Source: Verrucomicrobiota bacterium
GTDB lineage: Bacteria; Verrucomicrobiota; Verrucomicrobiia; Limisphaerales; UBA11358
Assembly (NCBI GenBank): GCA_049510295.1
Contig: JBEKZC010000004.1
Location: 4,224-68,223, forward strand
Reading direction: 5' to 3'
DNA length: 64,000 nt
Position 1 is the stretch's first letter. Every line of letters starts with the position of its first letter. Below the pieces are notes generated by a model. It did not search any database and was not told where the DNA came from. It saw only the letters and a list, made by a program, of their open reading frames with translations. Positions 4,993 to 32,771 of this stretch are shown piece by piece. Made by a program: the position numbers and the translations under genes.

Positions 4993-5090
4993 TATTCGGA
5001 CAAACTCACTTTATCATTTGATGTCTTTTGCCGGGAAAAGCCAAAGTCCGAATGCCTTGTCCCTTCCCGCCAGCCTGACTTCGCGGGCAT
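4993..5090. repeat. Rep-A intergenic repeat, copy A (short form)
   Basis: ttattcggacaaactcactttatcatttgatgtcttttgccgggaaaagccaaagtccgaatgccttgtcccttcccgc..cgcgggcat; it matches copies B-E. Confidence 0.85.
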
Positions 5091-5394: not shown

Positions 5395-5736
5395 TTATCC
5401 GAACAAACTCACTTTGTCATTTGATGTCTTTAGCCGGGAAAAGCCAAAGTCCGAAGGCCTTGTCCCTTTCCGCTCGATTCTGATTTCGCGGGCATGATGC
5501 GCCCCGGCCATGACCAGTCAACCCCTTTTGGTTTGTCCGCGGCCGGGTGAGTGAATTTTCACGCCAAGGCGCAAAGACGCAAAGCAAACTTTTTGGAGTG
5601 CGGCGGGAATCCCGCAGCGCGGGAGCCACGCCGCTTTTACAGCGTTGGGCGTTGTCCGAAAGCGGTGTCGCCGTTGGCACTCTGCCACCGCAGTCCAAAA
5701 TCCTCGCGTCTCTGCGTTAAAGAATTTGAAGGCAGA
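5395..5736. repeat. Rep-A intergenic repeat, copy B (long form)
   Basis: It has the same ~140-bp core as copy A. It also has a ~200-bp extension (..gtgagtgaattttcacgc..ttttggagtgcggcggg..ctgccaccgcagtccaaaatcc.cgcgtctctgcgtta) that is shared with copy C. Confidence 0.85.
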
Positions 5737-5773: not shown

Positions 5774-7111
5774 TCACTTCGCCCGCCCTTTCAGAAATGC
5801 CGGCACCACCTCATTCTGCAGGATTTGGTCCAACGTCTGGCGTTTTCGGATAAGCTCGACCGAGCCGTTTCCGGAGATCATGACTTCCGCAGCTTCCGGA
5901 AAGGAATTATAGTTCTTGGCTGCCATGCTCGAGCAATAGGCTCCAGCGCCGCCGAGCACTACCAGGTCGCCAATCCGTGTTTCCGGGAGCAGACGCGGTT
6001 GCAGGCCTTCCGGGCTTCCCGGCGCGGGTGTAAGCACATCACCACTTTCGCAGCAGTGTCCAACGACGACATACTTTACACGGCTGCGTCTTCCTGTCGC
6101 GCCACGCACGATTTCGATGGGATGTTGTGCCCCGTACATGCTGGGCCGGAGAATCTCGGTCATCCCGGTGTCCACCTTGAGAAACTTATAACCGCGACGC
6201 CCCGTATCCACGACGTCGATGACCGTCGCGATCAGGGCGCAGGAATTGGCCACCAGATACGTGCCTGGCTCCACTTCAAGATGCAGCCTTCGCCCATGTT
6301 TTGCTTCGAATGATCGAAATGCCTCCATGATGGGAAGGCCGATCTTCCGCAAGTCTGTCGTTTCTTCGCCCTTCACTCTGCCGATTTTATATCCGCCACC
6401 CAGATTCAGCACGGTCACGTCACACAGGCGCGAGCATGTGTCCAATGACATCAATGCCACGTGTTGCCAAACCTTCGGGTCGCTCCCCGATCCAATGTGC
6501 GTGTGCAGACGAGTGAACTTGAGGCCGTACTTCCGTCCGACTGCCAGCGCCTCATCCAGGTGTTCATGCCAGATGCCGAAACTGGCCGCAGGCCCGCCGA
6601 CGTTTGTCCGGTTGTTGTGCCCCGAACCCAGACCGGGATTGACACGAATCGACAGTTGACGGCCGGGAAACAGTGCCCCAAATGCGTGGATTTGTGCAAT
6701 CGAGCAGGCATTGAACAAGACGCCCCTGGTCACCAGTTCCTTCAGATTGTCCGGCACCTGTTGCGCCGTGAGTTGGATTCTTTCAGGGGAAACACCGGCG
6801 CGGAGCGAGCGCTCGATCTCATAGCCGCTGCTGGCATCAATATGCAGACCGGCATCGGCCAACACCTTGATCACTGCGCGTGTTGGACAAGCTTTCGCCG
6901 CATAGCGGGCCGTCAGGCCGAAAGCATTGGGAAAGCCAAGGACCAGGCAGGCCTGATGCTCCAACGTCCTCTGATCATATACAAAAACCGGTGTCCCAAA
7001 CTCCCGATGGATGGAACGTGCTTTATCTTCAGTAAGAAACGGGACCGACTTCATGCTCGCGCTCTCTTGAATCATGCTCTTTCTGTCCTTCACGTCCGTT
7101 TGCAAGGCCAA
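5774..7111 (-). CDS. Fold-type III PLP-dependent decarboxylase, diaminopimelate decarboxylase (LysA)-like
   Basis: 445-aa ORF with these motifs: ..ARYAAKAC.. (PLP lysine), HTHIGSG, LNLGGGY, EPGTYLVA, GHCCESGDVL, GAGAYCSSMAAKNYNSFP. The start may instead be the internal Met at 7075 or 7054. Confidence 0.75.
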   Translation of the reverse strand: MALQTDVKDRKSMIQESASMKSVPFLTEDKARSIHREFGTPVFVYDQRTLEHQACLVLGFPNAFGLTARYAAKACPTRAVIKVLADAGLHIDASSGYEIERSLRAGVSPERIQLTAQQVPDNLKELVTRGVLFNACSIAQIHAFGALFPGRQLSIRVNPGLGSGHNNRTNVGGPAASFGIWHEHLDEALAVGRKYGLKFTRLHTHIGSGSDPKVWQHVALMSLDTCSRLCDVTVLNLGGGYKIGRVKGEETTDLRKIGLPIMEAFRSFEAKHGRRLHLEVEPGTYLVANSCALIATVIDVVDTGRRGYKFLKVDTGMTEILRPSMYGAQHPIEIVRGATGRRSRVKYVVVGHCCESGDVLTPAPGSPEGLQPRLLPETRIGDLVVLGGAGAYCSSMAAKNYNSFPEAAEVMISGNGSVELIRKRQTLDQILQNEVVPAFLKGRAK

Positions 7112-7114
7112 CAG

Positions 7115-7447
7115 TATTTTTCGGACAAACTCACTTTGTCATTTGATGCCTTTTACCGGGAAAAGCCAAAGTCCGAATGACTTGTCCATTCCCGCTTGTT
7201 CTGATTTCGCGGGCATGATGCGCCCCGGCCATGACCAGTCAACCCCTTTTGGTTTGTCAGTGGTTGGGTGAGTGAATTTTCACGCAAAGGCGCCAAGGCG
7301 CAACCAAACGTTTTGGAGTGCGGCGGGAAGCGAAGCGCCACGCCGCTTTTGCAGCATTGGTCGGGATTCCAAAGCGGTGTCGCTGCTGCGCTCTGCCACC
7401 GCAGTCCAAAATCCACGCGTCTCTGCGTTATAATATTTGAAGGCCGA
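7115..7447. repeat. Rep-A intergenic repeat, copy C (long form)
   Basis: Near full-length match to copy B. It begins 3-4 nt from the decarboxylase start codon. Confidence 0.85.
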
Positions 7448-7503: not shown

Positions 7504-8331
7504 TCAGACCAGTGTCTGTTCATACAATTCGGCGTATTTGTCCGGGTAAAAGATCGGGGCGGCGTGTCCCAGGTTGCCCATGTCAAACACTTCCACGGCG
7601 CGGCCAAACAGCCTTTCGTATCGGGGAAAGTCCCGCTGGCTCTGGGTCGGATCATTGTCAGCTTTGAGCACAATGATGCGGCCGGTCCAGTTTCGATAAG
7701 CGGCGGGAGTGACGAGGCCCCTCCGGATCAAATCGGCAGCCACGGCAAAATGCGACACCACATCGGCACGGGACAGATCGTTTTGCATAACTTCGTGAAT
7801 GGCTTCCACCCATTCGGCGCGCCCGGCTTCCGACGAGGGAATGACTTTGAGCAGTGCGCTGGTCAGCAGCTTTTTGATCATCCTTTCAGGCAGGAGACGC
7901 ACCAGTGCAATGGCGGCATAATTCGCAGCCAGCCAGACCTTGCCGTAATCCGCCGGACCAGCGCTGGAAAGGATTAGCCGTTTCACACCCCTGGTCTTGT
8001 GCGCCAGATATGCCTGTGCCAGCAATCCGCCATACGACTGGCCTCCAAGCGCAAAGATGTCGATGCCTTCGGTTTGCAGGATGGCGTCAAAGGCGGTGAA
8101 AAACTCATCAATCGTCTGCACGGGCGGGTAATCAGGGGCGATGACGGTATGGCGTGCGGCCAACTTTTCCAGAAAGGCGAATCCGAATGACGCCCGGCGC
8201 AGTCCGCCGGGGAGCAAAAAGATGGGCGCGCCCGTGCCGAGGCGGCAGTAATGCCAAGCGGTATGGTTGACAATGACCGTCTTCCCAAACCGGTCAGAAA
8301 AGTGTTTCATTTGCGCCCAAATAGTCATCAC
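7504..8331 (-). CDS. Alpha/beta-fold hydrolase
   Basis: 275 aa with a GxSxG nucleophile elbow (LGGQSYGGLLAQ) and an HG-type oxyanion region (FLLPGGLR). Confidence 0.7.
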   Translation of the reverse strand: MMTIWAQMKHFSDRFGKTVIVNHTAWHYCRLGTGAPIFLLPGGLRRASFGFAFLEKLAARHTVIAPDYPPVQTIDEFFTAFDAILQTEGIDIFALGGQSYGGLLAQAYLAHKTRGVKRLILSSAGPADYGKVWLAANYAAIALVRLLPERMIKKLLTSALLKVIPSSEAGRAEWVEAIHEVMQNDLSRADVVSHFAVAADLIRRGLVTPAAYRNWTGRIIVLKADNDPTQSQRDFPRYERLFGRAVEVFDMGNLGHAAPIFYPDKYAELYEQTLV

Positions 8332-8365
8332 TCAACCTCCAGTCATTTACGGCGAGTCAACAGTC

Positions 8366-8501
8366 TTATTCGGACAAACTCACTTTATCATTGGATTTCT
8401 TTTGCCGGGAAAAGCCAAAGTCCGAAGGCCTTGTCCCTTCCCGCTCAATTCTGATTTCACGGGCATGATGCGCCCCGGCCATGACCAGTCAACCCCTTTT
8501 G
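8366..8501. repeat. Rep-A intergenic repeat, copy D (short form)
   Basis: cttattcggacaaactcactttatcattggatttcttttgccgggaaaagccaaagtccgaaggcc..gggcatgatgcgccccggccatgaccagtcaacccctttt. Confidence 0.85.
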
Positions 8502-8603
8502 CACCTTTGCACAACCGGCGTAGCGACTTCTCGGCAGAGAGCCGCACCCTTCAGTTTGCCGGAGGAATGCGGCGGTCTGCCGACCGCCGCTACGATGAAA
8601 GTG

Positions 8604-9083
8604 CTAGGATTTCTTTTTCTTTTGGGATGCGACCTTGAAAAACGTCCGGGGCCTTCGCTTGCCTTTCTGCGGAGTCTTCCGGCCCTTTTTTTCAACGGTC
8701 CCGCCTTGAACCTCATCCGAAGGACCTTGACGTACACATTCGCATCGGCAGGGAATCTGGTAGATGTCGCAAGGGTCATGCGCTCCACCACAGGGTTGTG
8801 GCCCCGAATCGCAATCACAGGGGGGTTGAGGATCGCAGCCACAGGACCCCGCTTCGCGGTCACTGTCGGGCCCGGGCAGAGGATCGGGACTGGGGTGGGG
8901 AGGGGGGTCTGGCTGATCGACACAAGGAAGGGGGCCTGCAGGCTCGCAGGCACAGGGGGGCAGAGGATCGTAGCCGGCGCACTCCGGTGGGCAGTCAATG
9001 CCGGCCTTCAACTTGGCGGCGGAAGCGCGAGATTGTTTGTTGGATGAAATAATCCGAATTTTAGGACGTTCGTTTTTAATCAT
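8604..9083 (-). CDS. Cys/Pro/Asp-rich peptide (159 aa), putative second precursor of the radical-SAM cluster
   Basis: ATG at 9083 preceded by aggaaaggaaa. Basic N-terminus (MIKNERPKIRIISSNKQ), 14 Cys mostly in CxC[DE] or PC contexts (CACE, CGCD, CDCD, CRCEC), and a Lys-rich tail. Other frames are also open here (GC-rich), so the frame choice rests on motif paralogy with 9116..9334. Confidence 0.5.
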   Translation of the reverse strand: MIKNERPKIRIISSNKQSRASAAKLKAGIDCPPECAGYDPLPPCACEPAGPLPCVDQPDPPPHPSPDPLPGPDSDREAGSCGCDPQPPCDCDSGPQPCGGAHDPCDIYQIPCRCECVRQGPSDEVQGGTVEKKGRKTPQKGKRRPRTFFKVASQKKKKS

Positions 9084-9115
9084 GGCGAGTTTCCTTTCCT
9101 AGTTTGGGTTTTGGT

Positions 9116-9334
9116 TTAAGGAGAAGATGGTGGATAGTGTGGATCATCCCCGGAACATTGGACTTCATAATTGCATGAGCAGGTCTCGACAGGCTCACAA
9201 TTGCAGTTGGCTTCCTGACTGACGTCTTTTCTAGCCGACGGCGTCCCGCCAAGCGTGACCACGCGGATTCTAGGGGTCTTCTTGGCTATCTTACCAATTT
9301 TCTTTTTAGGTTTTGGCGCTTTTTTCTTTGCCAT
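9116..9334 (-). CDS. Cys-rich precursor-like peptide (72 aa)
   Basis: ATG at 9334, 14 nt after the rSAM stop, preceded by agaaagga. It has a Lys-rich leader (MAKKKAPKPKKKIGKIAKKTPRIRVVTLGG) and a core ..EANCNCEPVETCSCNYEVQCSGDD.. Confidence 0.6.
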   Translation of the reverse strand: MAKKKAPKPKKKIGKIAKKTPRIRVVTLGGTPSARKDVSQEANCNCEPVETCSCNYEVQCSGDDPHYPPSSP

Positions 9335-9348
9335 GGCAACTGTCCTTT

Positions 9349-10842
9349 CTAACAAACATTGTGGTTTAACGAGACGACTTTTATTTGTTCGACGTCACGA
9401 GGTTCAATCACACCATCTGCCAACCAGACAATGAGTTGCTTGTTGACCAGGCCGGCAATCTGACAGCGATAGGGATCCGGGGAATACAGGTCACGATTCG
9501 AATACCTGAAGCTTCTTGCAGGGCAATCCCCAGCACAATGGTATCTAAGAAAACAGCCCTTGCAGGCGTCCATGTTCTCGGTAACCCTTTGTTTCAATTG
9601 CTCAATCCGAGCCTGATTCAACACTACCCGGCCTTGGATCGGATCAACTTTGCCGACAAAGAATTCATTCGCAGCCGGGTCCTTTGAATGGAGCACCTCG
9701 TAGCACGTCGTAATATTACCGTCGGGTGTAACACAAAAATTCTGGCCGCAGGCGGAACAGAATCGTTGATGGCAAGGCTCAAAACAGCGCATGCCCGAGT
9801 AACGGACATCAATATCAAGTTTGAGACCCAACAGAAAACAGTTCAGGAACTTCTCGGCGAATTGTTCCGCGTCCGGTCTCGTAATAGCGGTAGTTGCACA
9901 TCGTCCCGTAAGCGAGACAGGCTCGAAGTGAACCGTAGCAAGACCCAATTGTTTCGCCAGTTTGATGGTGTCCTCCATTGACGCCAAGGCCTCGTTCGTA
10001 ATCGTGGATCGAACAGAAACGCGCCTGCCCGCTTGGACCAGACTTTGCAGATTGCGCACCACGACGTCATAGCTCGGTTGGCCGGAACGGAAGGGGCGCT
10101 GACGATTCTGGGTGTCGCGGGGTCCGTCCAAACTTATATTCACGCTAATGTTGTTCTTAACGATCCACCGGTGCACCGATTTGCCGTATGTGCCGTTGGT
10201 GCCCATGCCCACGGACGGTTGCAACCCCGCCGCGCGGGCGCGCCCGCAGAACTCCGTGACAATGTCCTTCAACGTCGCAAATTCAACGGTCGCCTCTCCG
10301 CCGCCGTGGATGGCCAGGTTTACACTCTTGCGGGCGGCCCGCCCTGGGGCAGCGACGGAATTGAGGGTCGAAAAGAAATGGTCCAGTGCGGGACGCCAGA
10401 GGTCCCTGCTGATGGTCTTTCCCGCATCTCCTCCGTTGGCATAACAGTAGGCACACCGGAGATTGCACTTGGTGGTGACAAAGATGGCCAAATGAGTCAT
10501 TGAAGCCGAACTGTCGGGAACCGTCCGTCGGTCACTCTGGTTGGCGGTTTCCGGTTCCATCAAAATGCCAAGCTTGCGCAGTTGCCCGGTGACCGCCGCC
10601 AGTCCCTTGCGGTCCTGGTTGGAGAGTTTTTCAAGAAAGCCGGCGTTGTCCGGCTGGGTGATGAATGCCAGCATGGCTTCATTCATCGAAGCACAAGTGC
10701 GAGTGGCGGGGTCGAACAGGTAAACGCCGCCGTTATGCCTGAACACCGACGCCTGCGGATTCAACGTGAGCCGAGATCCCGAAGACATAAGGAATTGGGG
10801 AACTAATACCTTTCCCGTTGGATCGCTGTCAATCATTCTCAA
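9349..10842 (-). CDS. Radical SAM / SPASM-domain peptide maturase
   Basis: 497 aa with CxxxCxxC (TTKCNLRCAYCYA) and C-terminal Cys clusters (..CSACGQNFCVTPDGNITTC.., CKGCFLRYHCAGDCPARS) typical of SPASM. The N-terminal ~90 aa look PqqD/RRE-like. Confidence 0.8.
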   Translation of the reverse strand: MRMIDSDPTGKVLVPQFLMSSGSRLTLNPQASVFRHNGGVYLFDPATRTCASMNEAMLAFITQPDNAGFLEKLSNQDRKGLAAVTGQLRKLGILMEPETANQSDRRTVPDSSASMTHLAIFVTTKCNLRCAYCYANGGDAGKTISRDLWRPALDHFFSTLNSVAAPGRAARKSVNLAIHGGGEATVEFATLKDIVTEFCGRARAAGLQPSVGMGTNGTYGKSVHRWIVKNNISVNISLDGPRDTQNRQRPFRSGQPSYDVVVRNLQSLVQAGRRVSVRSTITNEALASMEDTIKLAKQLGLATVHFEPVSLTGRCATTAITRPDAEQFAEKFLNCFLLGLKLDIDVRYSGMRCFEPCHQRFCSACGQNFCVTPDGNITTCYEVLHSKDPAANEFFVGKVDPIQGRVVLNQARIEQLKQRVTENMDACKGCFLRYHCAGDCPARSFRYSNRDLYSPDPYRCQIAGLVNKQLIVWLADGVIEPRDVEQIKVVSLNHNVC

Positions 10843-10926
10843 GTCACATCAGATTTTCCCAGTCAATCCACCGATTCCGCGCAGCTCATTCAGTTTCCGG
10901 TGGGTGGGCGTTACGCCCCGACGTGT

Positions 10927-11077
10927 TTCAGGACAAAATCACTTTGTCATTTGATGTCTTTTACCGGAAACAGCCAAAGTCCGAATGCCTTGTCCCTTCC
11001 CGCGTTATCCCGACTTCGCGGGCATGATGCGCCCCGGCCATGACCAGTCAACCCCTTTTGGTTTGTCTGCGGCCGGG
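10927..11077. repeat. Rep-A intergenic repeat, copy E
   Basis: tttcaggacaaaatcactttgtcatttgatgtcttttaccggaaacagccaaagtccgaatgcc..gcgggcatgatgcgccccggccatgaccagtcaaccccttttggtttgtc. Confidence 0.8.
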
Positions 11078-11257
11078 CGCGCATTTTTCCCGCAAATTCG
11101 AGGACGAGAACGACGACGAGGACGATTCATGCTGGCCCAGTCCTCGTCACGGTGCCGGCCCCTGTCAGCAATTTGAAATCCGTGTTCATCTGTGTTCATC
11201 CGTGGTTGGATAAAAAACCGGATTGATGTCCGGGCCCGGTTCGACCATAACTTTTGA

Positions 11258-11360
11258 ATGTTAGCCCGGGTCTGTTCCGCCGCGCTCAATGGCATTGAAG
11301 CGTATCCCGTCGAGGTCGAAGTCAACGCCGGTTATGGCGACACCCTCGTCGTAATAATTG
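11258..11360 (+). pseudogene. comM: comM/yifB fragment 1 (N-terminal 34 codons), interrupted
   Basis: MLARVCSAALNGIEAYPVEVEVNAGYGDTLVVII matches the ComM/YifB N-terminus. The reading frame then runs into foreign DNA (..ETI*). Confidence 0.8.
11353..11360. repeat. attL core AATAATTG of insertion 1
   Basis: The identical 8-mer recurs at 21789..21796, exactly where comM homology resumes. Confidence 0.65.
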
Positions 11361-12699: not shown

Positions 12700-13221
12700 T
12701 CAAGGCAAGTTTTGTTTTGAAAGGACTTTGCCCGTGTAAGCTTCTGAATGTTTCAAATGCGCCTGCCAGTTGGCCGTGTATTTTTCAGCCAAATCAGCAT
12801 CCTGAATCACCAGCAAATTTTCGGCATTGTTTTCTTCTGCGGCCTTCGTGAAGTTGAAAGAGCCTGTTAAGATCGTCTTGCCGTCAATCACCATGATTTT
12901 GTTATGAGCAATAGCGTGTTTGGCGTCAATAAATGTTGGAATGCCCGCATGTTGGACAAAATCGGCAGAACTGTATTTTTCGGTGCGTTGGCTTTTATCC
13001 AAAATCACTTCCACGTTTACGCCGCGCTTGTGTGCATCCACGAGGGCTTTGGCAATCGGCGCGCTGGTAAATGAATACGCTTGAACTAAAATAGAATTCG
13101 TTGCCTTGTTAAGATTTTCCACGACGGCTTCAGTGCAACCACCCTTGGGGGAAAAGAAAACCTGAATGTCAGCAGCTTGGATTGAGACGGCTAAAAAAAG
13201 GGCAAGCAGGATTGATTTCAT
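12700..13221 (-). CDS. Phospholipase D-family endonuclease (Nuc-like), secreted
   Basis: 173 aa with a signal peptide (MKSILLALFLAVSIQA) and a single HKD motif (AIAHNKIMVIDGKTILTGSFNFT). The size is typical of Nuc. Confidence 0.8.
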   Translation of the reverse strand: MKSILLALFLAVSIQAADIQVFFSPKGGCTEAVVENLNKATNSILVQAYSFTSAPIAKALVDAHKRGVNVEVILDKSQRTEKYSSADFVQHAGIPTFIDAKHAIAHNKIMVIDGKTILTGSFNFTKAAEENNAENLLVIQDADLAEKYTANWQAHLKHSEAYTGKVLSKQNLP

Positions 13222-16197: not shown

Positions 16198-16866
16198 TCA
16201 TGCGTTTTGAATTTTGAGAACGTTGCTGACCGTGGACGGATACCACGTCTTGCCGGAACGGGTCGCAACTCCCCTGCGGTTCAGACAATCAGCAATTCCC
16301 TGTAATGTCTGAACACCCGCCAAACGGATTTCCTCAATGACCGGCAGAATTTTGGCTGCGAATTCCGACTTGGCCGTTTTGTTTGCCGTTACCATCGCGG
16401 CCACGGCCCGTTCTGGCTCGGGTGTTCCGAGCCGCATTCCTCTGTTCTTGGCTGCGGCCAATGCCGACTTGGTTCGTTCTGAAATCAGTTCCCTCTCTCT
16501 TTGGGCGACCAGCGCCAAAATCCCTATGGTGAAACGGTCAGCATTCGGGCAGTCGCAGCAAATGAAATCTGCGCCGCTGTTTTGGAGCCGCAAGAGAAAT
16601 TCGGCGTTTCTCGCCAGCCTGTCCAGCTTGGCGATTACAACTGTGCCTTTGGATTTCTTGGCGTAATCCAGTGCCGCAGCCAACTGTGGCCGTTCATCCT
16701 CCGTCCATTTGCCGGATTCCACTTCGGCGAATTCTTTTTCCAAAACCCCGTGCTGGCCTTCAACGAACCGCCGAACCGTGTCGCGTTGTGCCGACATTCC
16801 GTATCTCCCGTCCATCCCTTGTTGTTTGGTGCTCACTCTGTAATAGGCGATGTAGTTTTTATTCAT
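16198..16866 (-). CDS. Small serine recombinase (resolvase/invertase type)
   Basis: ATG at 16866: MNKNYIAYYRVSTKQQGMDGRYGMSAQRD.. (catalytic Ser context), ..VVIAKLDRLARN.., and a C-terminal HTH-like region. Confidence 0.8.
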   Translation of the reverse strand: MNKNYIAYYRVSTKQQGMDGRYGMSAQRDTVRRFVEGQHGVLEKEFAEVESGKWTEDERPQLAAALDYAKKSKGTVVIAKLDRLARNAEFLLRLQNSGADFICCDCPNADRFTIGILALVAQRERELISERTKSALAAAKNRGMRLGTPEPERAVAAMVTANKTAKSEFAAKILPVIEEIRLAGVQTLQGIADCLNRRGVATRSGKTWYPSTVSNVLKIQNA

Positions 16867-17055
16867 GGGGACACTGGTAAACGGCCCGCTCTGTCCCCGG
16901 CAACGAGGATTTACAAAAACTATACGGTGGCAAAGTGCCTGTAAAACCGCGTAAAAATGCTCCTTTTGCTGCGACGGTGGTATGGAAGATGTTCCAGACA
17001 TGCTGCTGATTTTTAACCAGCCGCCACCACTTAATTTAATCCATCACCCCTACTA

Positions 17056-20007: not shown

Positions 20008-21747
20008 TCAAATTCCCTTCGTCTTCCCCTTGTGATAATCCGGCATGTAAATCCCTGAAAATTGTTTGCCGAGCTTCCCTTTGAATTTCACTGGCACCGC
20101 CTTCATGGAAGGAGGCCCGCCATACTTTGGGTGAGACATGACGACGCGATGATTCGGGTCGTTCTTGAAATAGACATGATACATTCGTTCCCGGCGCTGG
20201 ACTTCTGACGTAAGCGACCACCCGGTTTTGGTCAATTCCCGCCTTTCCTTCCAACCAATTGAACCCGGTGGCGGCGGTTTGATTATGTCGTATGGCCAGA
20301 CCAAAATCTTTTCAATACACCCGCGAATTGCTTCCCGAAGGGCGAGCCGCATTTCGTTTGCCTTTGGGCCGGTGGTTTTTTGGGCCGTGGCAATCAAAGT
20401 CTTCAAGTCTTCTAATTTCTGTATCGGTTTGGATTCCTCGGCCTCTTTTGCGATTAGTTCTCCCAGAGATTTTTCCTCGGCGGTTTTTTCTGTCGTGATT
20501 TTTTCCATCATGCTGACGAGCATTGGAAGCGGTTTTTTGGCCAAAGCGACTGCTTCACCGAGATTGTTGAGCTTCATTTCCCTTTCTGCGATAGAGGCTC
20601 TTAACTGCTCAATGGCCTCAGCGGTTTGACTTCCGTTTCCCGACGGCTGCATCACGGCCTTCAAGTCCAACTCCTTTACGAATGTGAGGAAAGAGGTTTC
20701 AAATTCGTGGTATGGATAGGACACGTAACGACACTTCAATCCCCGGCGCGCACCGTCACACACTAACTCGTGGTAACGCGGGTCTTTTGATACGGACACC
20801 ATCGTTCCGCCGCAGAATCCGCACTTTGCAATATGAGAGAACAAATTGTGTAACATATTTCCGCGCCTGCCAGAACCCGCAACACGTCTTTGTTTTTGAC
20901 GATACTGGACGGTGCTGAACAACTCGTCGGATATAATTCTTGGGTAGTAGCCTTTGATTGGTTCTCCCTCCGGTTCGCGTTTGTTTCTGGTGACGTATTT
21001 ACAAGGTTGGAATTCTCCCAGCACTGCCCGGTTGGTCAAAATACGCGCTACGACGCTGGCGTGCCATGAGTTTACCCTGCCAATTCCCGGTTCGCCATCT
21101 GCGTTCAAAAGCTTGGCGATTGAGCCGTTCCCCATGCCGCTCTTGCTCAATTCAAAAATGTGCCGCACCGTTTTTACGCGTTCTCGGATTTCTTCAAATT
21201 TCCCCTTGTCACGATTCAGCCGCAGCCATGACGGGCAAACGGCTGTTAGCGGTTCAGCAGCGGCATTCTTCCGCTTGTTGTTCCACGCTGCTCGTATCCG
21301 TTTCCCCTTTTGGACTGACTCGTCGTAAGCCCGATGGAAATACAGGATGGAGAGCATCAAATCTGCCGGGTTATTGAGGCTGTCTTTCGTGAACCGTTTT
21401 CCGTCGGTCAAAGTTACAATGTCAATACCCTTGCGGAGAATGCGCTTAAACAATTCCGTCGCATCGTCAATCTGTCCGCGACTGAGCCGGTCTAAATTTT
21501 CTACAATAAGGCAGCTCCCCTTTTGGACTTTCCCCTCATCTATGGCCCGCAAAAATGCTCCAAGCCTGCCTCTGTGGATGTTGTCACCCGTGTATGCTGA
21601 CACTCCCAAGTCGCGGAAGCTCAAACTTTCATCAAGCGCAAGACCGTTTTTCGAGCAGTATTCCCGTGTGGACTCCAATTGACGCCGGAGAGAATCACCC
21701 TGAATTTGTTCTGGACGGGAAAACCGGATGTAACTATACGCTTTCAT
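20008..21747 (-). CDS. Large serine recombinase (integrase of insertion 1)
   Basis: ATG at 21747 (or 21768): [23 protein letters not shown].. (resolvase domain), ..[12 protein letters not shown].., a recombinase domain, a zinc ribbon ([18 protein letters not shown]) and a coiled coil. The track ORF extends to 22599 only as antisense read-through of comM. Confidence 0.85.
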
Positions 21748-21788
21748 GTGACGAATAGGGTATTGCATGAAATAGGTTATTTCAACCC

Positions 21789-21796
21789 AATAATTG
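21789..21796. repeat. attR core AATAATTG of insertion 1
   Basis: Identical to 11353..11360. The comM frame resumes in phase (..[19 protein letters not shown]). Confidence 0.65.
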
Positions 21797-22757
21797 TCAT
21801 TGTCGGCCTGCCGGATGCCGCGGTGAAGGAATCGCGCGACCGCGTTTCGACCGCGCTCACCAATTCCGGTTTCAAATTTCCGATGGGGCGCACGACCATC
21901 AACCTCGCGCCCGCCGACGTGAAAAAGGAAGGGCCGAGCTTCGACCTGCCCATCGCGCTGGGCATGCTCGCCGCCGGGGAACAAATCGAAACCGACCAGC
22001 TCGACAATTTTGTCATCGTGGGGGAACTCGCGCTCACCGGCGCGGTGCGTCCGTGCAAGGGCGTTTTGCCCGTCGCCCTGCGCGCGCGCGCCGACGGCAG
22101 GGTCGGCGTGCTTGTTCCGGCGGAAAACGCCGCCGAAGCTGCCGTCGTGGAAGGGCTGCAGGTCATCCCCGTTCAAAATCTGCGTGAAGCCGCGGGCTTT
22201 CTCGAAGGTGAAATAAAAATTGCGCCGGCGAAGGTGGACATTGCCAAAATCTTCGATCAAGCGCACGACGACGACCTGGACTTTGCCGAGGTCAAAGGAC
22301 AGGAAAACGTGAAACGCGCATTGGAAATCGCCGCCGCCGGCGGACACAACGCGCTGCTCATTGGTCCGCCCGGCACCGGCAAATCCATGTTGGCCAAACG
22401 GCTGCCGACGATTCTGCCGCCCTTGACCCTGGACGAGGCGCTCGAAACGACGAAGATTCACAGCATCGTCGGATTGCTGGCCCCGGGCCAGGCGCTGGTG
22501 ACGCGGCGGCCGTTTCGCACGCCGCACCACACCGCGAGCGACGCCGGTTTGCTCGGCGGCAACATCAACCCGACGCCGGGCGAAATTTCGCTGGCGCACA
22601 ACGGCGTTTTGTTTCTGGACGAACTGCCGGAATTCAAACGCAGCGTGCTGGAAACCATGCGCCAGCCGCTGGAAGACGGACGCGTGACCATTTCACGCGC
22701 GGCGGGCACGATGACGTTTCCCTCGCAATTCATGCTCGTCGCGGCGATGAACCCGAC
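21797..22757 (+). pseudogene. comM: comM/yifB fragment 2 (central AAA+ part)
   Basis: ..[78 protein letters not shown], then read-through into foreign DNA. Confidence 0.85.
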
Positions 22758-23102: not shown

Positions 23103-24407
23103 ATGAACGCTTCTGGCAAATCGCGTTTTGGTAGGAAGCTGCAAAAAGCACGGGAACGAATCGGCTGGTCTCAAAAAGTGCTTGCAGACAAAGTCGGTGT
23201 ATCACGCGTGACATTGGCGAGTTGGGAGGCCGGCAACTCTGCCCCCGATGGCGCGATGGCCTTGAAGTTGGCCAAGCAGCTGGACTCCGATGCCATCGAA
23301 TTCTTCCTTTTGGCGACATACCAGAAGGCAGCCACTACGGATTCGCTGTCAGCGGAGCTTGAGACGTTCGTTTTTGAACTCCTTGAAGAAAAGGGAATGT
23401 TGGCAGCACGTCACGGGGGATTACATAAACCTACCAGTCATTTGAGTCTGGTGGATTCGCTTCGGGCGTACTCTCCTATGGTGATTATCACGGGTGACAA
23501 GAGAGAGGATCCCCCAAAGAACGCGGGCGATCTTTTTGCCTTCTCAAACAGTTCGCTCGACGAGCGTTGGATTTGTTCACTTCGTTTACCCCCGGACACC
23601 GAAAAGATTTCAGACAAAGTTGTAATGACCGCTCCGGAAAAGTGGTTACGAGAAAACCTAGGCAATAAGCACATACTGTGCGTCGGATCGGGTGCGGCAA
23701 ACCTTTACGCGAGAGAATTCAACGATTCATTTCTCTTCCGCTTTAACATTACTCGCGCGAGCAAAGCCAGCTGGGAGGAGAATCGTGACAAAATCAAGAA
23801 GATGCCCCAATACGAACTCGTTGACTACGCTCAAAAGCAGAGGGATAGGCTGAAATACGAAATGCACCGGTTTAAGCCACCAGGCTTTGTTGACTACAAC
23901 TACGAATATCTTACGCTGGGAGTTGATCTACCTCAAGACATGGACTTCGGAGTCATCAGCTTAGGGCGAAATCCTTGGGCTGCAAAGAGTGATCCGAAAT
24001 TTGCGATTCTCGCTGCAGGGGTTCACCTCCCAGGAACAGCACATGCGGTAAAGTTTCTGTCTGACCCGACGAATTTTGAAGAACATCCATTCGGTGGCGT
24101 TATAGATGTTGAAGTCCCGGCTGTGGAGCACCGCGGAGCGGATATCCCCTGGTACGAGAAAATTGGCAAGTGTAAAGCATATTGGCATAGTGCGGGGAGC
24201 AAGCCATTGACGTACACGCCAGAGAAACTTCGTAAGAGCCTGCAGAATTGGCTCAAGCAACTTGAAAAGGGGCAGCTCGAAGTGGATGTAGCCCTCAATA
24301 AGGCGGAGATTGAACGGCACATCGACACGATTGATATGTTGGCGTATGCGAAGGTTCAACAACAAAAACTCAGTGCGGCAAATGGAGTTGAAGAGGAAAG
24401 TGGCTAG
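23103..24407 (+). CDS. XRE-type HTH fused to an uncharacterised ~350-aa C-terminal domain
   Basis: 434 aa. N-terminus RKLQKARERIGWSQKVLADKVGVSRVTLASWEAGNSAPD; I cannot assign the rest (..ILCVGSGAANLYAREFN.., ..FAILAAGVHLPGTAHAVKFL..) to a family. Confidence 0.6.
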   Translation: MNASGKSRFGRKLQKARERIGWSQKVLADKVGVSRVTLASWEAGNSAPDGAMALKLAKQLDSDAIEFFLLATYQKAATTDSLSAELETFVFELLEEKGMLAARHGGLHKPTSHLSLVDSLRAYSPMVIITGDKREDPPKNAGDLFAFSNSSLDERWICSLRLPPDTEKISDKVVMTAPEKWLRENLGNKHILCVGSGAANLYAREFNDSFLFRFNITRASKASWEENRDKIKKMPQYELVDYAQKQRDRLKYEMHRFKPPGFVDYNYEYLTLGVDLPQDMDFGVISLGRNPWAAKSDPKFAILAAGVHLPGTAHAVKFLSDPTNFEEHPFGGVIDVEVPAVEHRGADIPWYEKIGKCKAYWHSAGSKPLTYTPEKLRKSLQNWLKQLEKGQLEVDVALNKAEIERHIDTIDMLAYAKVQQQKLSAANGVEEESG

Positions 24408-29537: not shown

Positions 29538-31202
29538 TTACATAACAATTCCTTTTTCTTTAAGATCATAAAGGCAAGTAAGAACGTCAGGAAATGCTTC
29601 CTTGGGCTGAATTTGATAACGTCTGGCAAGGAGGGCTGCGATGGAGGCAGGCGTGCGGCTGCCGTTGCAGAGCCCAATAATCTCCCGCGCTGTTCGATTA
29701 ATAACGACACTTTCTCGCTGATTAACTGCCACGTATTTTTCGCCGACCTTTCGTAGCAAGAGGCCACTTGCCTGTTGTGGTCGCAACTTCTCCGCATCTG
29801 CCCAAGGTCCGGAGGCGTCTAGATATTGACACACGAGATTCATAAAACCTTTACGTTCCGCTTCTGATAATACAGCAATTGCCATCTCAATGGTGCATTG
29901 AATATAACGACATTGTTCTGGCACTGGTACTGAAACGCAGCCACTATCCATGTACGCATCGTGGTAACACATGCCACCACAATATTGGCGTGCCCAACAT
30001 GCGGAACAACTCGCATTTTCAGCGCCCATTATTATCTTATCTACAGGCGATGCATCATATCCTGTGAAAACTGTCCCCATATGAAATTTTGGTAGATCAA
30101 AGAAGCGATGACAGAGACAGTACTCACCCGTAGCAGAAACTCCTAAATATGAACATCCAGCGCCGCACACCTGTCTCGAACGCCGTCCATAAAGTGCACG
30201 GCGAAGCCAATTTGCACTCTGAATGTCCCCGGAGTAGCCGGCGGCAACAACATCATCACAGAATGCAGTAAAGAGCGCCTCATAGGAATCCCGCAAGGCG
30301 GGAAGATCGTTTTCTTGGAGATTAAACTCTGGTTTCCCCGCCACAAACGCGGGGACGAGGGCAACTCTGCGAACACCCAGCCCTTGTAAGTAACGATAAA
30401 TCCCCGGCAAATTAAGATTGAGACGGCTAAAAGTGGCACGGATCATTACACGGTCAGTATCAGTTCCCATGATTCGCAACAGCATACTAAGCTTTCTCGA
30501 TGCAACGTCAAATATGCCCTGACCATTCGGGAATAATCTCATGCGATTAGTTGTTTCAGCGTTTCCATCAAGGCTGAACAGTACTGCAATGTGATGTTCA
30601 TGGATGAATTTAGCAATCTCCTCTATCAGCATTGTTCCATTGGTTGTGAGTCCGAATGCAATATGGCATTTCTGCTCCTTAGCCTTTTGTTCGCCATAGA
30701 GAACAAGTTCCCTCATGACTGAATAATTCAGTAGCGGTTCTCCACCGAAGAAAGATACATTGTGCCGAGATGATGGCTCATCAATAAGGCGATCAATTGC
30801 GGCTTTGCCGATTTCGAGGGACATGTCGACAGAAGACGATCCCTCGTGCTGAGCACTGAAGTAACAATATTTGCAGCATAGATTGCATCGCCTGGTAAGT
30901 TCAAGGGAAAGATAATTAACTGGGTTTCGGCAGCTCCCCGCCCTTAAGCTCAATATTTTTGAATTAACCAATCGGCTTGCTGTGTGTTCTAACGGCTCTG
31001 ATGTAATACCCGCGGCCGACACTCCTCGGGTTTCATACAAACTCTTCCATGCTCCGGACGTAAGCAACAGTTCTTCGTCTGGAGTAAGACAAAGAAAAGT
31101 CCTCGTCTTACTGTTAACGGCAAAAGATTTCTGCCCTCTGCGATATATATGAATATCTTGCATCCCAGATAGTAACCCGTCACCCATCCGGCACCCATGC
31201 AA
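29538..31202 (-). CDS. Radical SAM / SPASM maturase with a C-terminal PqqD/RRE-like domain
   Basis: 554 aa with CxxxCxxC (RRCNLCCKYCYF), SPASM Cys clusters (..CSACWARQYCGGMCYHD..) and a C-terminal ..VVINRTAREIIGLCNGSRTPASIAALLARRYQI.. PqqD-like segment. Confidence 0.8.
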   Translation of the reverse strand: MHGCRMGDGLLSGMQDIHIYRRGQKSFAVNSKTRTFLCLTPDEELLLTSGAWKSLYETRGVSAAGITSEPLEHTASRLVNSKILSLRAGSCRNPVNYLSLELTRRCNLCCKYCYFSAQHEGSSSVDMSLEIGKAAIDRLIDEPSSRHNVSFFGGEPLLNYSVMRELVLYGEQKAKEQKCHIAFGLTTNGTMLIEEIAKFIHEHHIAVLFSLDGNAETTNRMRLFPNGQGIFDVASRKLSMLLRIMGTDTDRVMIRATFSRLNLNLPGIYRYLQGLGVRRVALVPAFVAGKPEFNLQENDLPALRDSYEALFTAFCDDVVAAGYSGDIQSANWLRRALYGRRSRQVCGAGCSYLGVSATGEYCLCHRFFDLPKFHMGTVFTGYDASPVDKIIMGAENASCSACWARQYCGGMCYHDAYMDSGCVSVPVPEQCRYIQCTIEMAIAVLSEAERKGFMNLVCQYLDASGPWADAEKLRPQQASGLLLRKVGEKYVAVNQRESVVINRTAREIIGLCNGSRTPASIAALLARRYQIQPKEAFPDVLTCLYDLKEKGIVM

Positions 31203-31240
31203 TAAAATTGAAAAGCTATGGGTTAATTACAATTCATTCA

Positions 31241-31471
31241 TCAGGCAGATTCCCCGTCGCATGGGCGACATTCGAAATGGTCGCCGCAACCGGCACATTC
31301 CAACACTTGCCCGCAGTTTGTGCACGGTCTCTCGCTAGAGGGGCAAATGGTGCATTCACATTCCACATTCACATTAGGAGGTGTGGTTTGTTTGATGCCT
31401 TTCGCTATGCCACCAACATCTGGTTTTTCATAGGTCGGCTTTGATTTATTGCATTTCTTTGAGTTTCTCAT
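31241..31471 (-). CDS. Cys-rich precursor-like peptide (76 aa)
   Basis: Strong SD (ggaggga) 5 nt before the ATG at 31471. MRNSKKCNKSKPTYEKPDVGGIAKGIKQTTPPNVNVECECTICPSSERPCTNCGQVLECAGCGDHFECRPCDGESA. It ends 38 nt upstream of the rSAM start. Confidence 0.65.
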   Translation of the reverse strand: MRNSKKCNKSKPTYEKPDVGGIAKGIKQTTPPNVNVECECTICPSSERPCTNCGQVLECAGCGDHFECRPCDGESA

Positions 31472-31545
31472 CGTCTCCCTCCAAGAGTATTGCCCGGTCC
31501 GCCGCCGGAAATTTGGCTTCGATGTTTTGAATTAATTAAGCGGAT

Positions 31546-31581
31546 ATTTCCCACATATGACCCGACATTTCCCATATGACC
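31546..31581. promoter_or_regulatory. Tandem operator-like repeat upstream of the precursor gene
   Basis: atttcccacatatgacc and atttcccatatgacc lie 4 nt apart, each centred on a catatg palindrome, about 75-110 nt upstream of the precursor ATG (minus strand). Confidence 0.3.
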
Positions 31582-31798
31582 TACGCTCGCCACTGTCGCG
31601 AAGCATTTGGTTTCATTGGCCGTCATTTTATCCTCGCTGCCTGTGTCCGCAAGCTTATTTTCCTATCTCAAGGCCGGATTGTTACCTCCGGGATCGTCGT
31701 TCTTCCTTGCAAACGGGCTCCATCGCGAATTTTGACCAATCATCGGCACAATCCTTCCCTCAGCCCGCACTCCTTCCCCCTATTTCGTTCCGTGGGCA

Positions 31799-32191
31799 TC
31801 AGCCCGGTACCGGTGTGGGCAACCGCAGGTGCCCAATCCGCTCCAGAATCGCTCGGAATAACTCACGCGGAATCGCCACTTCCGCCATCTGGAAGATCAC
31901 CTGCCGGGCATGGCGCACCACCTTCGCGCCGATCTTGATCAGTTTCTCCCGCAACGTCGTCAGCGGCAGCTTGGTGTCCTGAAACACCGTTCCCGCCAGC
32001 ACCGAAGTCTGGTGCCGGCAATCCTGACAAAGCCACAAGCCGCGTTTCATCGGCCAAGTGCGCTGGCTTGCGCAGCGCGGACAACGCAAGCCCTCCGGCC
32101 AGCGAAACGCTTGAATATAGGCCAAACAATCGGTCTCATCGTGAAAACGCTGTTCCAGTTCCATCCATGTTCGCGGGTAGTCTTCGTTCAT
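31799..32191 (-). pseudogene. Chimeric transposase remnant (IS1595-type zinc-ribbon N-terminus fused to an unrelated transposase C-terminal tail)
   Basis: N-terminus ..DCLAYIQAFRWPEGLRCPRCASQRTWPMKRGLWLCQDCRHQTSVLAGTVFQDTKLPL.. is the IS1595 N-terminal domain. The tail ..KLIKIGAKVVRHARQVIFQMAEVAIPRELFRAILERI.. resembles the extreme C-terminus of IS1380/IS4-type DDE transposases. There is no catalytic domain. Confidence 0.6.
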
Positions 32192-32323
32192 ATCCGAAAA
32201 CTCTACCCGTTGTGCCTGGTTGAGTCATGTGCATACCCCTATGAAATGATTAAATATTGAAAGGTTGGGCCTCTTTTTTCGTATCAGACGAATGGAGAAC
32301 GCAGGCGAAGAATCATTGGGGTT

Positions 32324-32539
32324 ATGGCGCGGGCGGCCCAGCTCAATAATCTTCAACAGTGGCTGAAAATAGCTGAGAAATCAACCTACAGCGCCCGTGT
32401 CTTGTCGAAAAAACTGGAAGTCTCCCCACGGCAATTGCGGCGTTATACGCACGCCCGTTTTGGACGCAGACAGCACGAAAAATTCAGCCCTTCTCCCGTG
32501 AGTTGCGCGAGAATGGCTGACTACGAGCGGCGGAAATAG
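32324..32539 (+). pseudogene. AraC-family HTH fragment
   Basis: 71 aa: ..YSARVLSKKLEVSPRQLRRYTHARFG.. is a single AraC-type HTH repeat with no ligand domain. Confidence 0.4.
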
Positions 32540-32561
32540 CCGCCAACGGCGTGTTCATTCA

Positions 32562-32771
32562 CGCGAGAACCACTCCCAAATTATTTAACACGACATCGAT
32601 CGGATTCACCAAAGTGATGCCGGATTGGTTATCCGTGGCGCATACCAACCCCACAGGCTGTAATGTTGCAGCGTCAACGACGAGTGACCCCGAATCGCCT
32701 TTCTGTGCGAACGGCTGACCATTCACACCTTCAATGAGCCCGGTGTTTGGGCCCGGTGTTGACCAAGCAGG
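32562..32771 (-). other. 70-codon stop-to-stop frame encoding a GDSGS serine-protease-like C-terminus; overlaps the S8 stop
   Basis: I translated this by hand: PAWSTPGPNTGLIEGVNGQPFAQKGDSGSLVVDAATLQPVGLVCATDNQSGITLVNPIDVVLNNLGVVLA*. It has no ATG and is offset by one nt from the S8 frame. Confidence 0.3.

Follow-up and report, generated by a model that had tools for sequence, protein, structure and literature searches.

A 64,000-nucleotide stretch of contig JBEKZC010000004.1 from a Verrucomicrobiota bacterium, referred to here as the window, carries on its minus strand a gene for a radical S-adenosylmethionine (SAM)/SPASM peptide maturase, followed by a 72-aa open reading frame (ORF) and then a 159-aa ORF, both encoding Cys-rich peptides. 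The enzyme and its Cys-rich peptide form a two-gene unit that is widespread in unrelated microbes, and the peptide family is unnamed in the curated libraries searched, Pfam and NCBIfam. The reading that we favour, with a probability of about 60%, is that of a ranthipeptide-like system producing a multiply thioether-crosslinked peptide. It would operate as a self-contained cassette comprising the coupled substrate peptide or peptides and a single enzyme with a recognition element for peptides made by the ribosome and modified after translation (RiPPs), known as an RRE, together with radical SAM and SPASM domains.

New families of RiPPs that depend on radical SAM enzymes are found often, and the radical SAM/SPASM maturases are a main source of new peptide crosslink chemistry. 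Within this group the present family provides a compact test case of one enzyme and one peptide, with an unusual substrate layout, in which conserved sequence at both ends is combined with as many as 28 Cys and with an acidic residue for every two Cys. Moreover, as one of its carriers, Methylocystis iwaonis SD4, is in culture, both the chemistry and the biology are directly testable. Should dense Cys-Asp thioethers indeed be formed, the enzyme could serve in peptide stapling, as PapB does.

A conserved pairing of enzyme and peptide

A large protein search returned 71 clusters that are 40–78% identical to the window enzyme, and about 30 loci, drawn from species genomes, metagenomes and an exact look-up, were examined. 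The named sources of the enzyme include Methylocystis, Bacteroidota, Dehalococcoidales, Geobacteraceae, Terracidiphilus and a metagenome-assembled genome (MAG) assigned to Methanobacteriota; this last copy sits on a 4.9-kb contig and its archaeal assignment is weak or doubtful. Wherever the sequence continues beyond an enzyme of at least 40% identity, a Cys-rich ORF begins 10–40 nt past the enzyme stop codon, with few exceptions. The first-pass annotation of the window had proposed an enzyme-substrate pair of the radical SAM/SPASM peptide-maturase kind and had suggested looking for homologous genes that lack an adjacent Cys-rich ORF. That check came out in favour of the proposal, since the pairing holds in about 30 loci and small Cys-rich ORFs follow the homologous genes almost always. 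A similar question had been raised over the reading frame of the 159-aa peptide. Other long ORFs overlap positions 8481-9047 but show no protein-family conservation, whereas the 159-aa frame is the conserved one, and its occurrence is beyond chance because the same frame constitutes a protein family next to orthologous enzymes in these loci.

In an all-against-all comparison of flanking ORFs the enzyme and the Cys-rich peptide were the only genes in common, and the annotated neighbourhoods of the relatives are wholly different from one another. Neither the flank comparison nor the annotated neighbourhoods revealed a protease or exporter conserved with the cassette, or any metal-resistance or transport genes recurring beside it. 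In M. iwaonis SD4 the pair is located on the 155-kb plasmid NZ_CP143316.1, between a serine recombinase gene and conjugation genes; the enzyme (WP_283484519.1) is annotated only as "radical SAM protein", and its peptide partner, a 128-aa ORF at about 147,035-147,421, is not in the gene table. Mobile-element genes are therefore found near the cassette in two settings, this plasmid and the window with its recombinases. The serine recombinases of the two were considered as parts of one shared mobile element, a notion that was rejected as they are unrelated. Across distant phyla the enzyme is conserved at 60–78% identity while the peptide core changes fast, and this contrast suggests a portable function under diversifying pressure.

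Two of the loci examined have a further radical SAM/SPASM gene within a few kilobases of the cassette (L170, 3187-4839; L168, 10829-11959), which in L170 adjoins a 56-aa ORF ending in CGVCDGSCRVCKSCRVPESD.

The precursor peptide family

The precursor statistics are based on 47 unique sequences, with a separate composition tally of 21 sequences. The family alignment resolves three parts, namely an N-terminal leader, a variable core and a C-terminal tail. The leader motif x-I-R-I-V-[ST]-L is present in 44 of the 47 unique precursors and the tail motif R-T-F-F-K-I-A in 42. Overall the precursors are 72–180 aa long, with one of about 240 aa, and contain 4–28 Cys. The core, which is variable in length and sequence and in some members is made up of perfect tandem repeats (CSCDCDQSVPPP five times over, for instance), consists of approximately 25% Cys; in the smaller tally the values are 26% Cys, 16% Pro and 14% Asp. 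Strong conservation within the core is limited to Cys, Pro and Asp/Glu. A second Cys is enriched two residues to either side of a given Cys (z = 17.6) and the CC dipeptide is almost absent. Relative to Cys, positions +1 and +3 are enriched in acidic residues (z = 18 and z = 22, respectively), whereas +2 and +4 are poor in them, and the most frequent 4-mer is CDCD. The recurring unit of Cys-x-Cys plus an acidic residue, first remarked upon in the window peptides, is hence a strong feature of the family as a whole.

Alignment of the window peptides with those beside homologous radical SAM genes, as had been recommended, confirmed the family and also brought to light the conserved RTFFKIA tail, which had been missed. 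The description of the leaders as Lys-rich needs revision, since the conserved leader is x-I-R-I-V-[ST]-L and a poly-Lys N-terminal extension is confined to one subclade of precursors. In the 159-aa peptide the Lys-rich stretch is actually C-terminal, around RTFFKVAS, and the peptide ends in QKKKKS. Nor did the idea that this peptide is a multi-core precursor find support: it contains no repeated cleavage motifs, and no tandem DNA repeats are present in the precursor genes of the window.

None of the 21 precursors matched an NCBIfam model, even at E≤10, or a Pfam model at E≤1, metallothionein families included, and a profile search of the PDB with the precursor gave no match at E≤10. When 1.84 billion representative proteins were searched exhaustively with a profile, 28 matches came back, all of them family members and none a metallothionein, with the 159-aa peptide scoring 111 bits (E = 5e-27). 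An AlphaFold2 model of the 159-aa precursor, made with possible leader-tail pairing in mind, is disordered (pLDDT 53), which fits a role as a substrate. Full-text searches of the literature turned up no description of the peptide family, although large mining atlases may include it.

Such a composition raises the alternative that the product is chiefly a metal-binding, metallothionein-like peptide or an Fe-S-binding one, in which most Cys remain free to hold Cu, Zn, Cd or Fe. The radical SAM enzyme would then make only a few modifications, or would prepare or load the peptide, and some crosslinking would be compatible with this. The very high Cys content, the dominant C-x-C spacing, the abundant Asp and the small size are all as in metallothioneins, and the lack of a conserved exporter or protease fits an intracellular role. 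Cys are also more numerous than acidic acceptors in many members, and some precursors of a more distant family (see below) carry twin-arginine translocation (TAT) signals, which serve cargo that is folded or loaded with a cofactor. Metallothioneins, however, need no maturase and are not known to be paired with a radical SAM maturase, whereas here the pairing is near-obligate. Moreover, the present peptides have conserved non-Cys termini and display no sequence relation to metallothioneins in any of the Pfam, PDB or exhaustive profile searches, and metal-resistance or transport genes do not recur beside the cassette in the neighbourhoods compared. A chiefly metal-binding product is considered unlikely, albeit worth keeping in view.

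Enzymes that are only 30–35% identical to the window enzyme (L010, L014, L015, L016, L020, L023, L024 and L030) adjoin another unnamed family of Cys-rich peptides. Their repeats are of the VCTCN/CTCD/CSCQ kind, with N, D, Q or E after C-x-C, and their N-terminal motif is of the PK[IV]F type. A TAT signal is present in some of them, and GYWYPN or VPVH forms the C-terminal end of many. They may represent a sister family. As these enzymes too adjoin C-x-C-[N/D/Q/E] peptides, the comparison suggests that a C-x-C-polar unit could be a functional site across the wider clade.

The maturase

The longest frame of the enzyme gene spans 9349..10842 with a TTG start, and a further in-frame start, an ATG, lies upstream at 10836. 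The true start is probably the ATG at 10788, giving a protein of 479 aa rather than the 497 aa initially assigned, because the alignment with 25 homologues begins at MSSGSRLTLNP and an identical 479-aa gene has been called on a JGI contig.

The only Pfam match of the enzyme is to PF04055, Radical_SAM, at 39.9 bits against a cut-off of 29.5. The three cysteines of its CX3CX2C cluster motif are invariant in a 26-homologue alignment, and the translation also contains CKGCFLRYHCAGDC, found by regular expression. The seven-Cys SPASM motif, defined as CX9-15GX4C - gap - CX2CX5CX3C - gap - C (PMC6231123), is complete, taking the form C344-x12-G-x4-C362, C409-x2-C412-x5-C418-x3-C422 and C442. Two further cysteines occur in this region, Cys335, which is invariant in 26 sequences, and Cys347, which is conserved in 90%. 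The Pfam SPASM model itself gave no match to the enzyme at E≤0.01. In an AlphaFold2 model with an overall pLDDT of 80.8, the N-terminal domain consists of three β strands (residues 30-34, 37-42 and 47-51) followed by three helices (53-60, 65-69 and 73-88), a predicted topology that is RRE-like over residues 30-88. The best fold match in the PDB, found with Foldseek, is to the SCIFF thioether synthase CteB (5wgg), to which the enzyme aligns over its full length with a TM score of 0.77, and CteB is likewise the best PDB sequence-profile match (E = 3e-31).

The search of NCBIfam that had been proposed gave 64 matches, all to SPASM peptide maturases and all far under the curated cut-offs, so that no curated family was reached. 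The highest score was to PapB (NF047865; 125.9 bits against a cut-off of 340), followed by a nif11-type peptide maturase (122 against 519), the SCIFF maturase (TIGR03974; 113.4 against 425), QhpD (TIGR03906; 101.6 against 453) and CefB (88 against 600). Four of these five are thus PapB, which forms Cys-Asp links, the SCIFF maturase, QhpD, which forms Cys-Asp and Cys-Glu links, and CefB, with the nif11-like maturase second. The ranthipeptide-like chemistry suggested from the start fits these best HMM (hidden Markov model) and structure matches, namely PapB, the SCIFF maturase/CteB and QhpD.

The enzyme could instead be a sactisynthase, joining the Cys sulfur to an alpha carbon to give a sactipeptide. 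Its architecture is the same as that of sactisynthases, it matches StsB (54 bits against a cut-off of 625) and SkfB more weakly but genuinely, and attack at an alpha as opposed to a beta or gamma carbon is indistinguishable from sequence alone. Yet the best matches, PapB, CteB and QhpD, are non-alpha thioether formers. The precursors, moreover, are not divided into a half with the Cys donors and a half with the acceptors, as is usual for sactipeptides; they repeat the C-x-C-[D/E] unit periodically, and its acidic position is strongly conserved. Taken together, we would assign sactipeptide formation only a slim chance.

A different radical chemistry altogether is also conceivable, with the C-x-C motif serving some other end. 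SPASM enzymes catalyse many reaction types, and the candidates would include oxidation of Cys to formylglycine of the anSME kind, crosslinking through C-C or ether bonds, epimerisation and a reaction at C-x-C that has no precedent. In keeping with this, anSME is among the structural and HMM matches, all family scores lie under their cut-offs, and ranthipeptides are not known to have two Cys for each acidic residue. However, the restriction of strong core conservation to Cys, Pro and Asp/Glu, the rarity in the core of the aromatic and Lys residues typical of C-C and ether links, and the fact that the nearest characterised relatives all form Cys thioethers make such a chemistry very improbable.

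A role in a known anti-phage defence system was considered and rejected. Of the PADLOC defence models the enzyme matched only pVip (37 bits), generically through the radical SAM core, and the peptides matched none.

Proposed chemistry

The scheme favoured here, in which the enzyme installs multiple ranthipeptide-type thioethers, takes the gene pairing, the motifs and the domain make-up of the enzyme from the data; leader docking, the thioether chemistry, the acceptor residue and the biological role are what we infer. The leader of CteA is known to dock on the RRE of CteB by strand addition (PMC6231123). By analogy, the hydrophobic and basic x-I-R-I-V-T-L segment at the N-terminus of the precursor would dock as an extra β strand on the RRE of the present enzyme. 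The enzyme would cleave SAM reductively and abstract hydrogen from side-chain carbons of the core, and a Cys sulfur would then be joined to the side-chain carbon, the likeliest acceptors being C-beta or C-gamma of the Asp or Glu that follows each C-x-C. With many links per peptide, as the 4–28 Cys would allow, the product would become rigid, polycyclic and Pro-rich. The RTFFKIA tail may be a second functional element, perhaps as another site of contact with the enzyme or as a signal for handling. Because the cassette is not accompanied by a conserved protease or exporter, its product may stay uncleaved and intracellular, as has been proposed for SCIFF and QhpC, or else may rely on host machinery.

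It is probable that Asp and Glu are the acceptors, as the acidic position after C-x-C is the most conserved non-Cys feature, and as four of the five closest HMM matches include characterised formers of Cys links to Asp, Glu or Thr side-chain carbons. Moreover, PapB takes Cys-Xn-Asp/Glu with n = 0-6 (PMC9413430), a tolerance that would cover both the C-D and the C-x-x-D spacings of the present family, and Asp/Glu acceptors are used in QhpD and freyrasin chemistry (PMC8326336).

Several observations nonetheless weigh against this scheme. In many cores Cys outnumber acidic residues, such that not every Cys can pair with an Asp or Glu, and in some cores C-x-C is followed by Gln, His or Pro. The composition of the peptides resembles that of metal-binding peptides, and the scheme leaves the conserved RTFFKIA tail unexplained. 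For the enzyme, the Pfam PqqD/RRE model gave no match to the N-terminal domain, and function is not transferable by homology because every family-specific HMM score is far below its cut-off. Finally, at a few loci the precursor is disrupted or has no tail. In the Methanobacteriota MAG (L001/L086) the precursor ORF ends after eight codons (MTDKNEPK) and AT-rich sequence runs to the contig end, which reflects either a disrupted cassette or an assembly problem; the precursor of L168 appears frameshifted, and those of L102 and L169, together with the 72-aa ORF of the window, are without a tail.

A more radical proposal is that these long, hypervariable Cys/Pro/Asp repeat peptides constitute an undescribed class, in which each C-x-C-[D/E] unit would form a new crosslink pattern or a metal or cluster site, for instance with two sulfurs engaging one acidic residue. 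The product would retain IRIVTL and RTFFKIA as working parts, horizontal transfer would carry the unit from phylum to phylum, and the fast-changing core would serve microbial conflict or metal handling. We regard this as rather unlikely.

Comparison with known systems

The cassette appears to work most like the maturation systems of SCIFF, freyrasin and QhpC, yet by profile score, and by the models and motifs of the precursors as well, it falls outside each of them. The SCIFF system (TIGR03973/TIGR03974), represented by CteA/CteB and Tte1186a/Tte1186, likewise consists of just two genes, one for an RRE-radical SAM-SPASM enzyme and one for a Cys-rich peptide, and has no protease or exporter of its own; CteB is the closest solved structure to the window enzyme. 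The SCIFF leader is a short basic/hydrophobic, strand-like motif. The SCIFF precursor, however, is about 45 aa in length with six Cys, and is therefore at variance with the longer peptides of the present family, which have a variable C-x-C-[D/E] and Pro-rich core and a conserved RTFFKIA tail and match no NCBIfam model. The hosts differ too, in that the present family is found not in Clostridia but in Acidobacteriota, Bacteroidota, Desulfobacterota, PVC-like bacteria and Methylocystis.

PapB, the top NCBIfam match, acts on PapA to give freyrasin with its six Cys-Asp C-beta thioethers, and both PapA and the present precursors have repeated units of Cys plus Asp. Unlike the C-X3-D motif of PapA, the present unit is C-x-C-[D/E], with two Cys per acidic residue and with acidic residues at +1 and +3 and depleted at +4. 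The present cores are also much longer and hypervariable, and are followed by a conserved C-terminal tail.

QhpD is a radical SAM/SPASM enzyme that makes Cys-Asp (C-beta) and Cys-Glu (C-gamma) thioethers in the small Cys-rich protein QhpC, from which no small natural product is cut (PMC8326336). The QhpC precursors are unrelated to the present peptides, and no qhp dehydrogenase genes were found near the cassette in the flanks or annotated neighbourhoods.

Organisation of the cassette and origin of the two precursors

The features of the cassette are listed in Table 1. The gene order, the 14-nt gap, both peptides and the motifs first reported on the minus strand, which for the 159-aa peptide include CACE, CGCD, CDCD and CRCEC, are all present, as are the purine-rich sequences resembling ribosome-binding sites (RBS) before both peptide genes, GAAAGGA and AGGAAAGGAAA. 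The 72-aa ORF, precursor 1, contains MAKKKAPKPKKK and then NCNCEPVETCSCNYEVQCSGDD, and is separated by a 32-nt gap, which holds AGGAAAGGAAA, from the 159-aa ORF, precursor 2. The stem-loop beyond precursor 2 is possibly the end of the predicted transcription unit; it has no T-run and was not picked up by a simple terminator scan.

Table 1. Features of the cassette, with positions in the window.
Feature	Position	Strand	Basis
Radical SAM/SPASM peptide maturase gene, 479 aa (probable start)	9349..10788	-	ORF list, homologue alignment, gene call
RRE-like N-terminal peptide-binding domain, three β strands then three helices	10543..10770	-	AlphaFold2 model
CX3CX2C radical SAM cluster motif, C108-N-L-R-C112-A-Y-C115 (CNLRCAYC)	10444..10467	-	Regular expression on translation
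SPASM domain, complete 7-Cys motif	9463..9786	-	Regular expression and invariant alignment columns
Spacer from maturase stop codon to precursor 1, 14 nt, with RBS-like GAAAGGA	9335..9348	-	Sequence; kept in L166
Precursor 1, 72 aa, leader PRIRVVTL, 5 Cys, without rest of core and RTFFK tail	9116..9334	-	Translation, alignment with P0091
Junction before precursor 2, remnant of last codons of a second radical SAM gene plus RBS AGGAAAGGAAA	9084..9119	-	Alignment with maturase gene 3' ends
Precursor 2, 159 aa, full family member, 14 Cys	8604..9083	-	ORF, translation, family alignments, composition
Precursor 2 leader motif PKIRIISS	9042-9065	-	Family alignment
Precursor 2 Cys/Pro/Asp core, Cys31-Cys116, 14 Cys	8736-8993	-	Translation
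Precursor 2 tail RTFFKVAS	8625-8648	-	Family alignment
Strong GC-rich stem-loop after precursor 2 stop codon	8531..8583	-	Predicted RNA folding, -35.2 kcal/mol, z = -3.0 relative to shuffled sequences
Sigma-70-like promoter match TTGACT-16-CATCAT, upstream of maturase gene, inside repeat copy 10928-11077	11024..11051	-	Promoter scan, consensus match only

A metagenomic relative, L166, helps to account for the two peptides. It has the same enzyme 3' end, which is followed by a 107-aa precursor, P0091. Precursor 1 matches P0091 as far as ...DDPHYPP, with 10 of 68 shared codons differing, beyond which P0091 runs on as CSCDNDSPCVCQ...RRTFFKAAGS. In the DNA alignment with L166 the window has a deletion of about 258 nt that takes with it the rest of the precursor 1 core, the tail and most of the spacer. 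By this comparison precursor 1 is best described as a 3'-truncated copy of the 107-aa precursor type. It retains the Lys-rich N-terminal extension, the leader motif and five Cys, and with the tail removed by deletion it may be a poor substrate or none. Precursor 2, in turn, is an intact, full member of the family.

The spacer of L166 (740-916) contains a decayed copy of the last ~55 nt of a radical SAM gene just before the second precursor, and the last part of this copy is retained at the junction preceding precursor 2 in the window. The same segment is homologous to the true enzyme/precursor junction of another relative, L167, whose precursor is of the 159-aa type. Because a remnant of a maturase 3' end precedes the second precursor and is homologous to the L167 junction, we conclude that the two-precursor layout arose when two cassettes fused and the second enzyme was lost, precursor 1 then having been truncated in the window. 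Between the window and L166 there are 19 non-synonymous and 3 synonymous differences in the first 45 codons of precursor 2, as against 10 non-synonymous and 22 synonymous differences in the enzyme C-terminus, which suggests, from a small sample, a fast-evolving peptide beside a constrained enzyme.

Genomic surroundings

A 135–150-nt repeat occurs in five copies, all in one orientation (5000-5070, 5398-5547, 7119-7268, 8369-8518 and 10928-11077), and is confined, within the window, to these 6 kb. Every copy sits immediately upstream of a gene unit on the minus strand, these being a 124-aa ORF, a 78-aa zinc-ribbon-like ORF, a lysA-like decarboxylase, a hydrolase and the radical SAM cassette. Within the scanned stretch 8300-11300 the only sigma-70-like promoter matches are held by its two repeat copies, and the aligned copies show small hairpins. 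A 90% identical copy is found in another genome (L167, 8254-8387), downstream of the orthologous cassette and about 420 nt from the precursor. Rfam gave no match for the repeats, which could be promoter-bearing dispersed repeats or miniature inverted-repeat transposable elements. Their interpretation as integron attC sites or cassette borders was rejected, as the single-stranded DNA does not fold into a single long imperfect hairpin, there is no integrase, and a copy also occurs in the different genome context of L167.

The alpha/beta hydrolase (7504-8331) and the lysA-like decarboxylase (5774-7111) were each considered as parts of the system and rejected, since in the other loci neither is found beside the cassette, and each is preceded by a promoter-bearing repeat copy of its own. 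The decarboxylase, which is diaminopimelate-decarboxylase-like, scores 264.9 bits, below the lysA equivalog cut-off of 297.9, and may not be the housekeeping lysA because it lies between repeat copies.

Within 13 kb of the cassette are genes for a PLD/NucT-like (DrmC-like) nuclease, two serine recombinases and an XRE-type regulator (12700-13221, 16198-17001, 20008-22599 and 23103-24407), an assemblage that suggests a mobile or island-like region.

The window also contains a second, unrelated candidate peptide-maturation locus on the minus strand (29538-37098). It comprises a 76-aa Cys-rich ORF (31241-31471), a 554-aa radical SAM protein (29538-31202) carrying a PqqD/RRE domain at its C-terminus, and a 1455-aa S8 subtilase (32731-37098). 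The radical SAM protein of this locus is only 26% identical to the cassette enzyme, over the core only.

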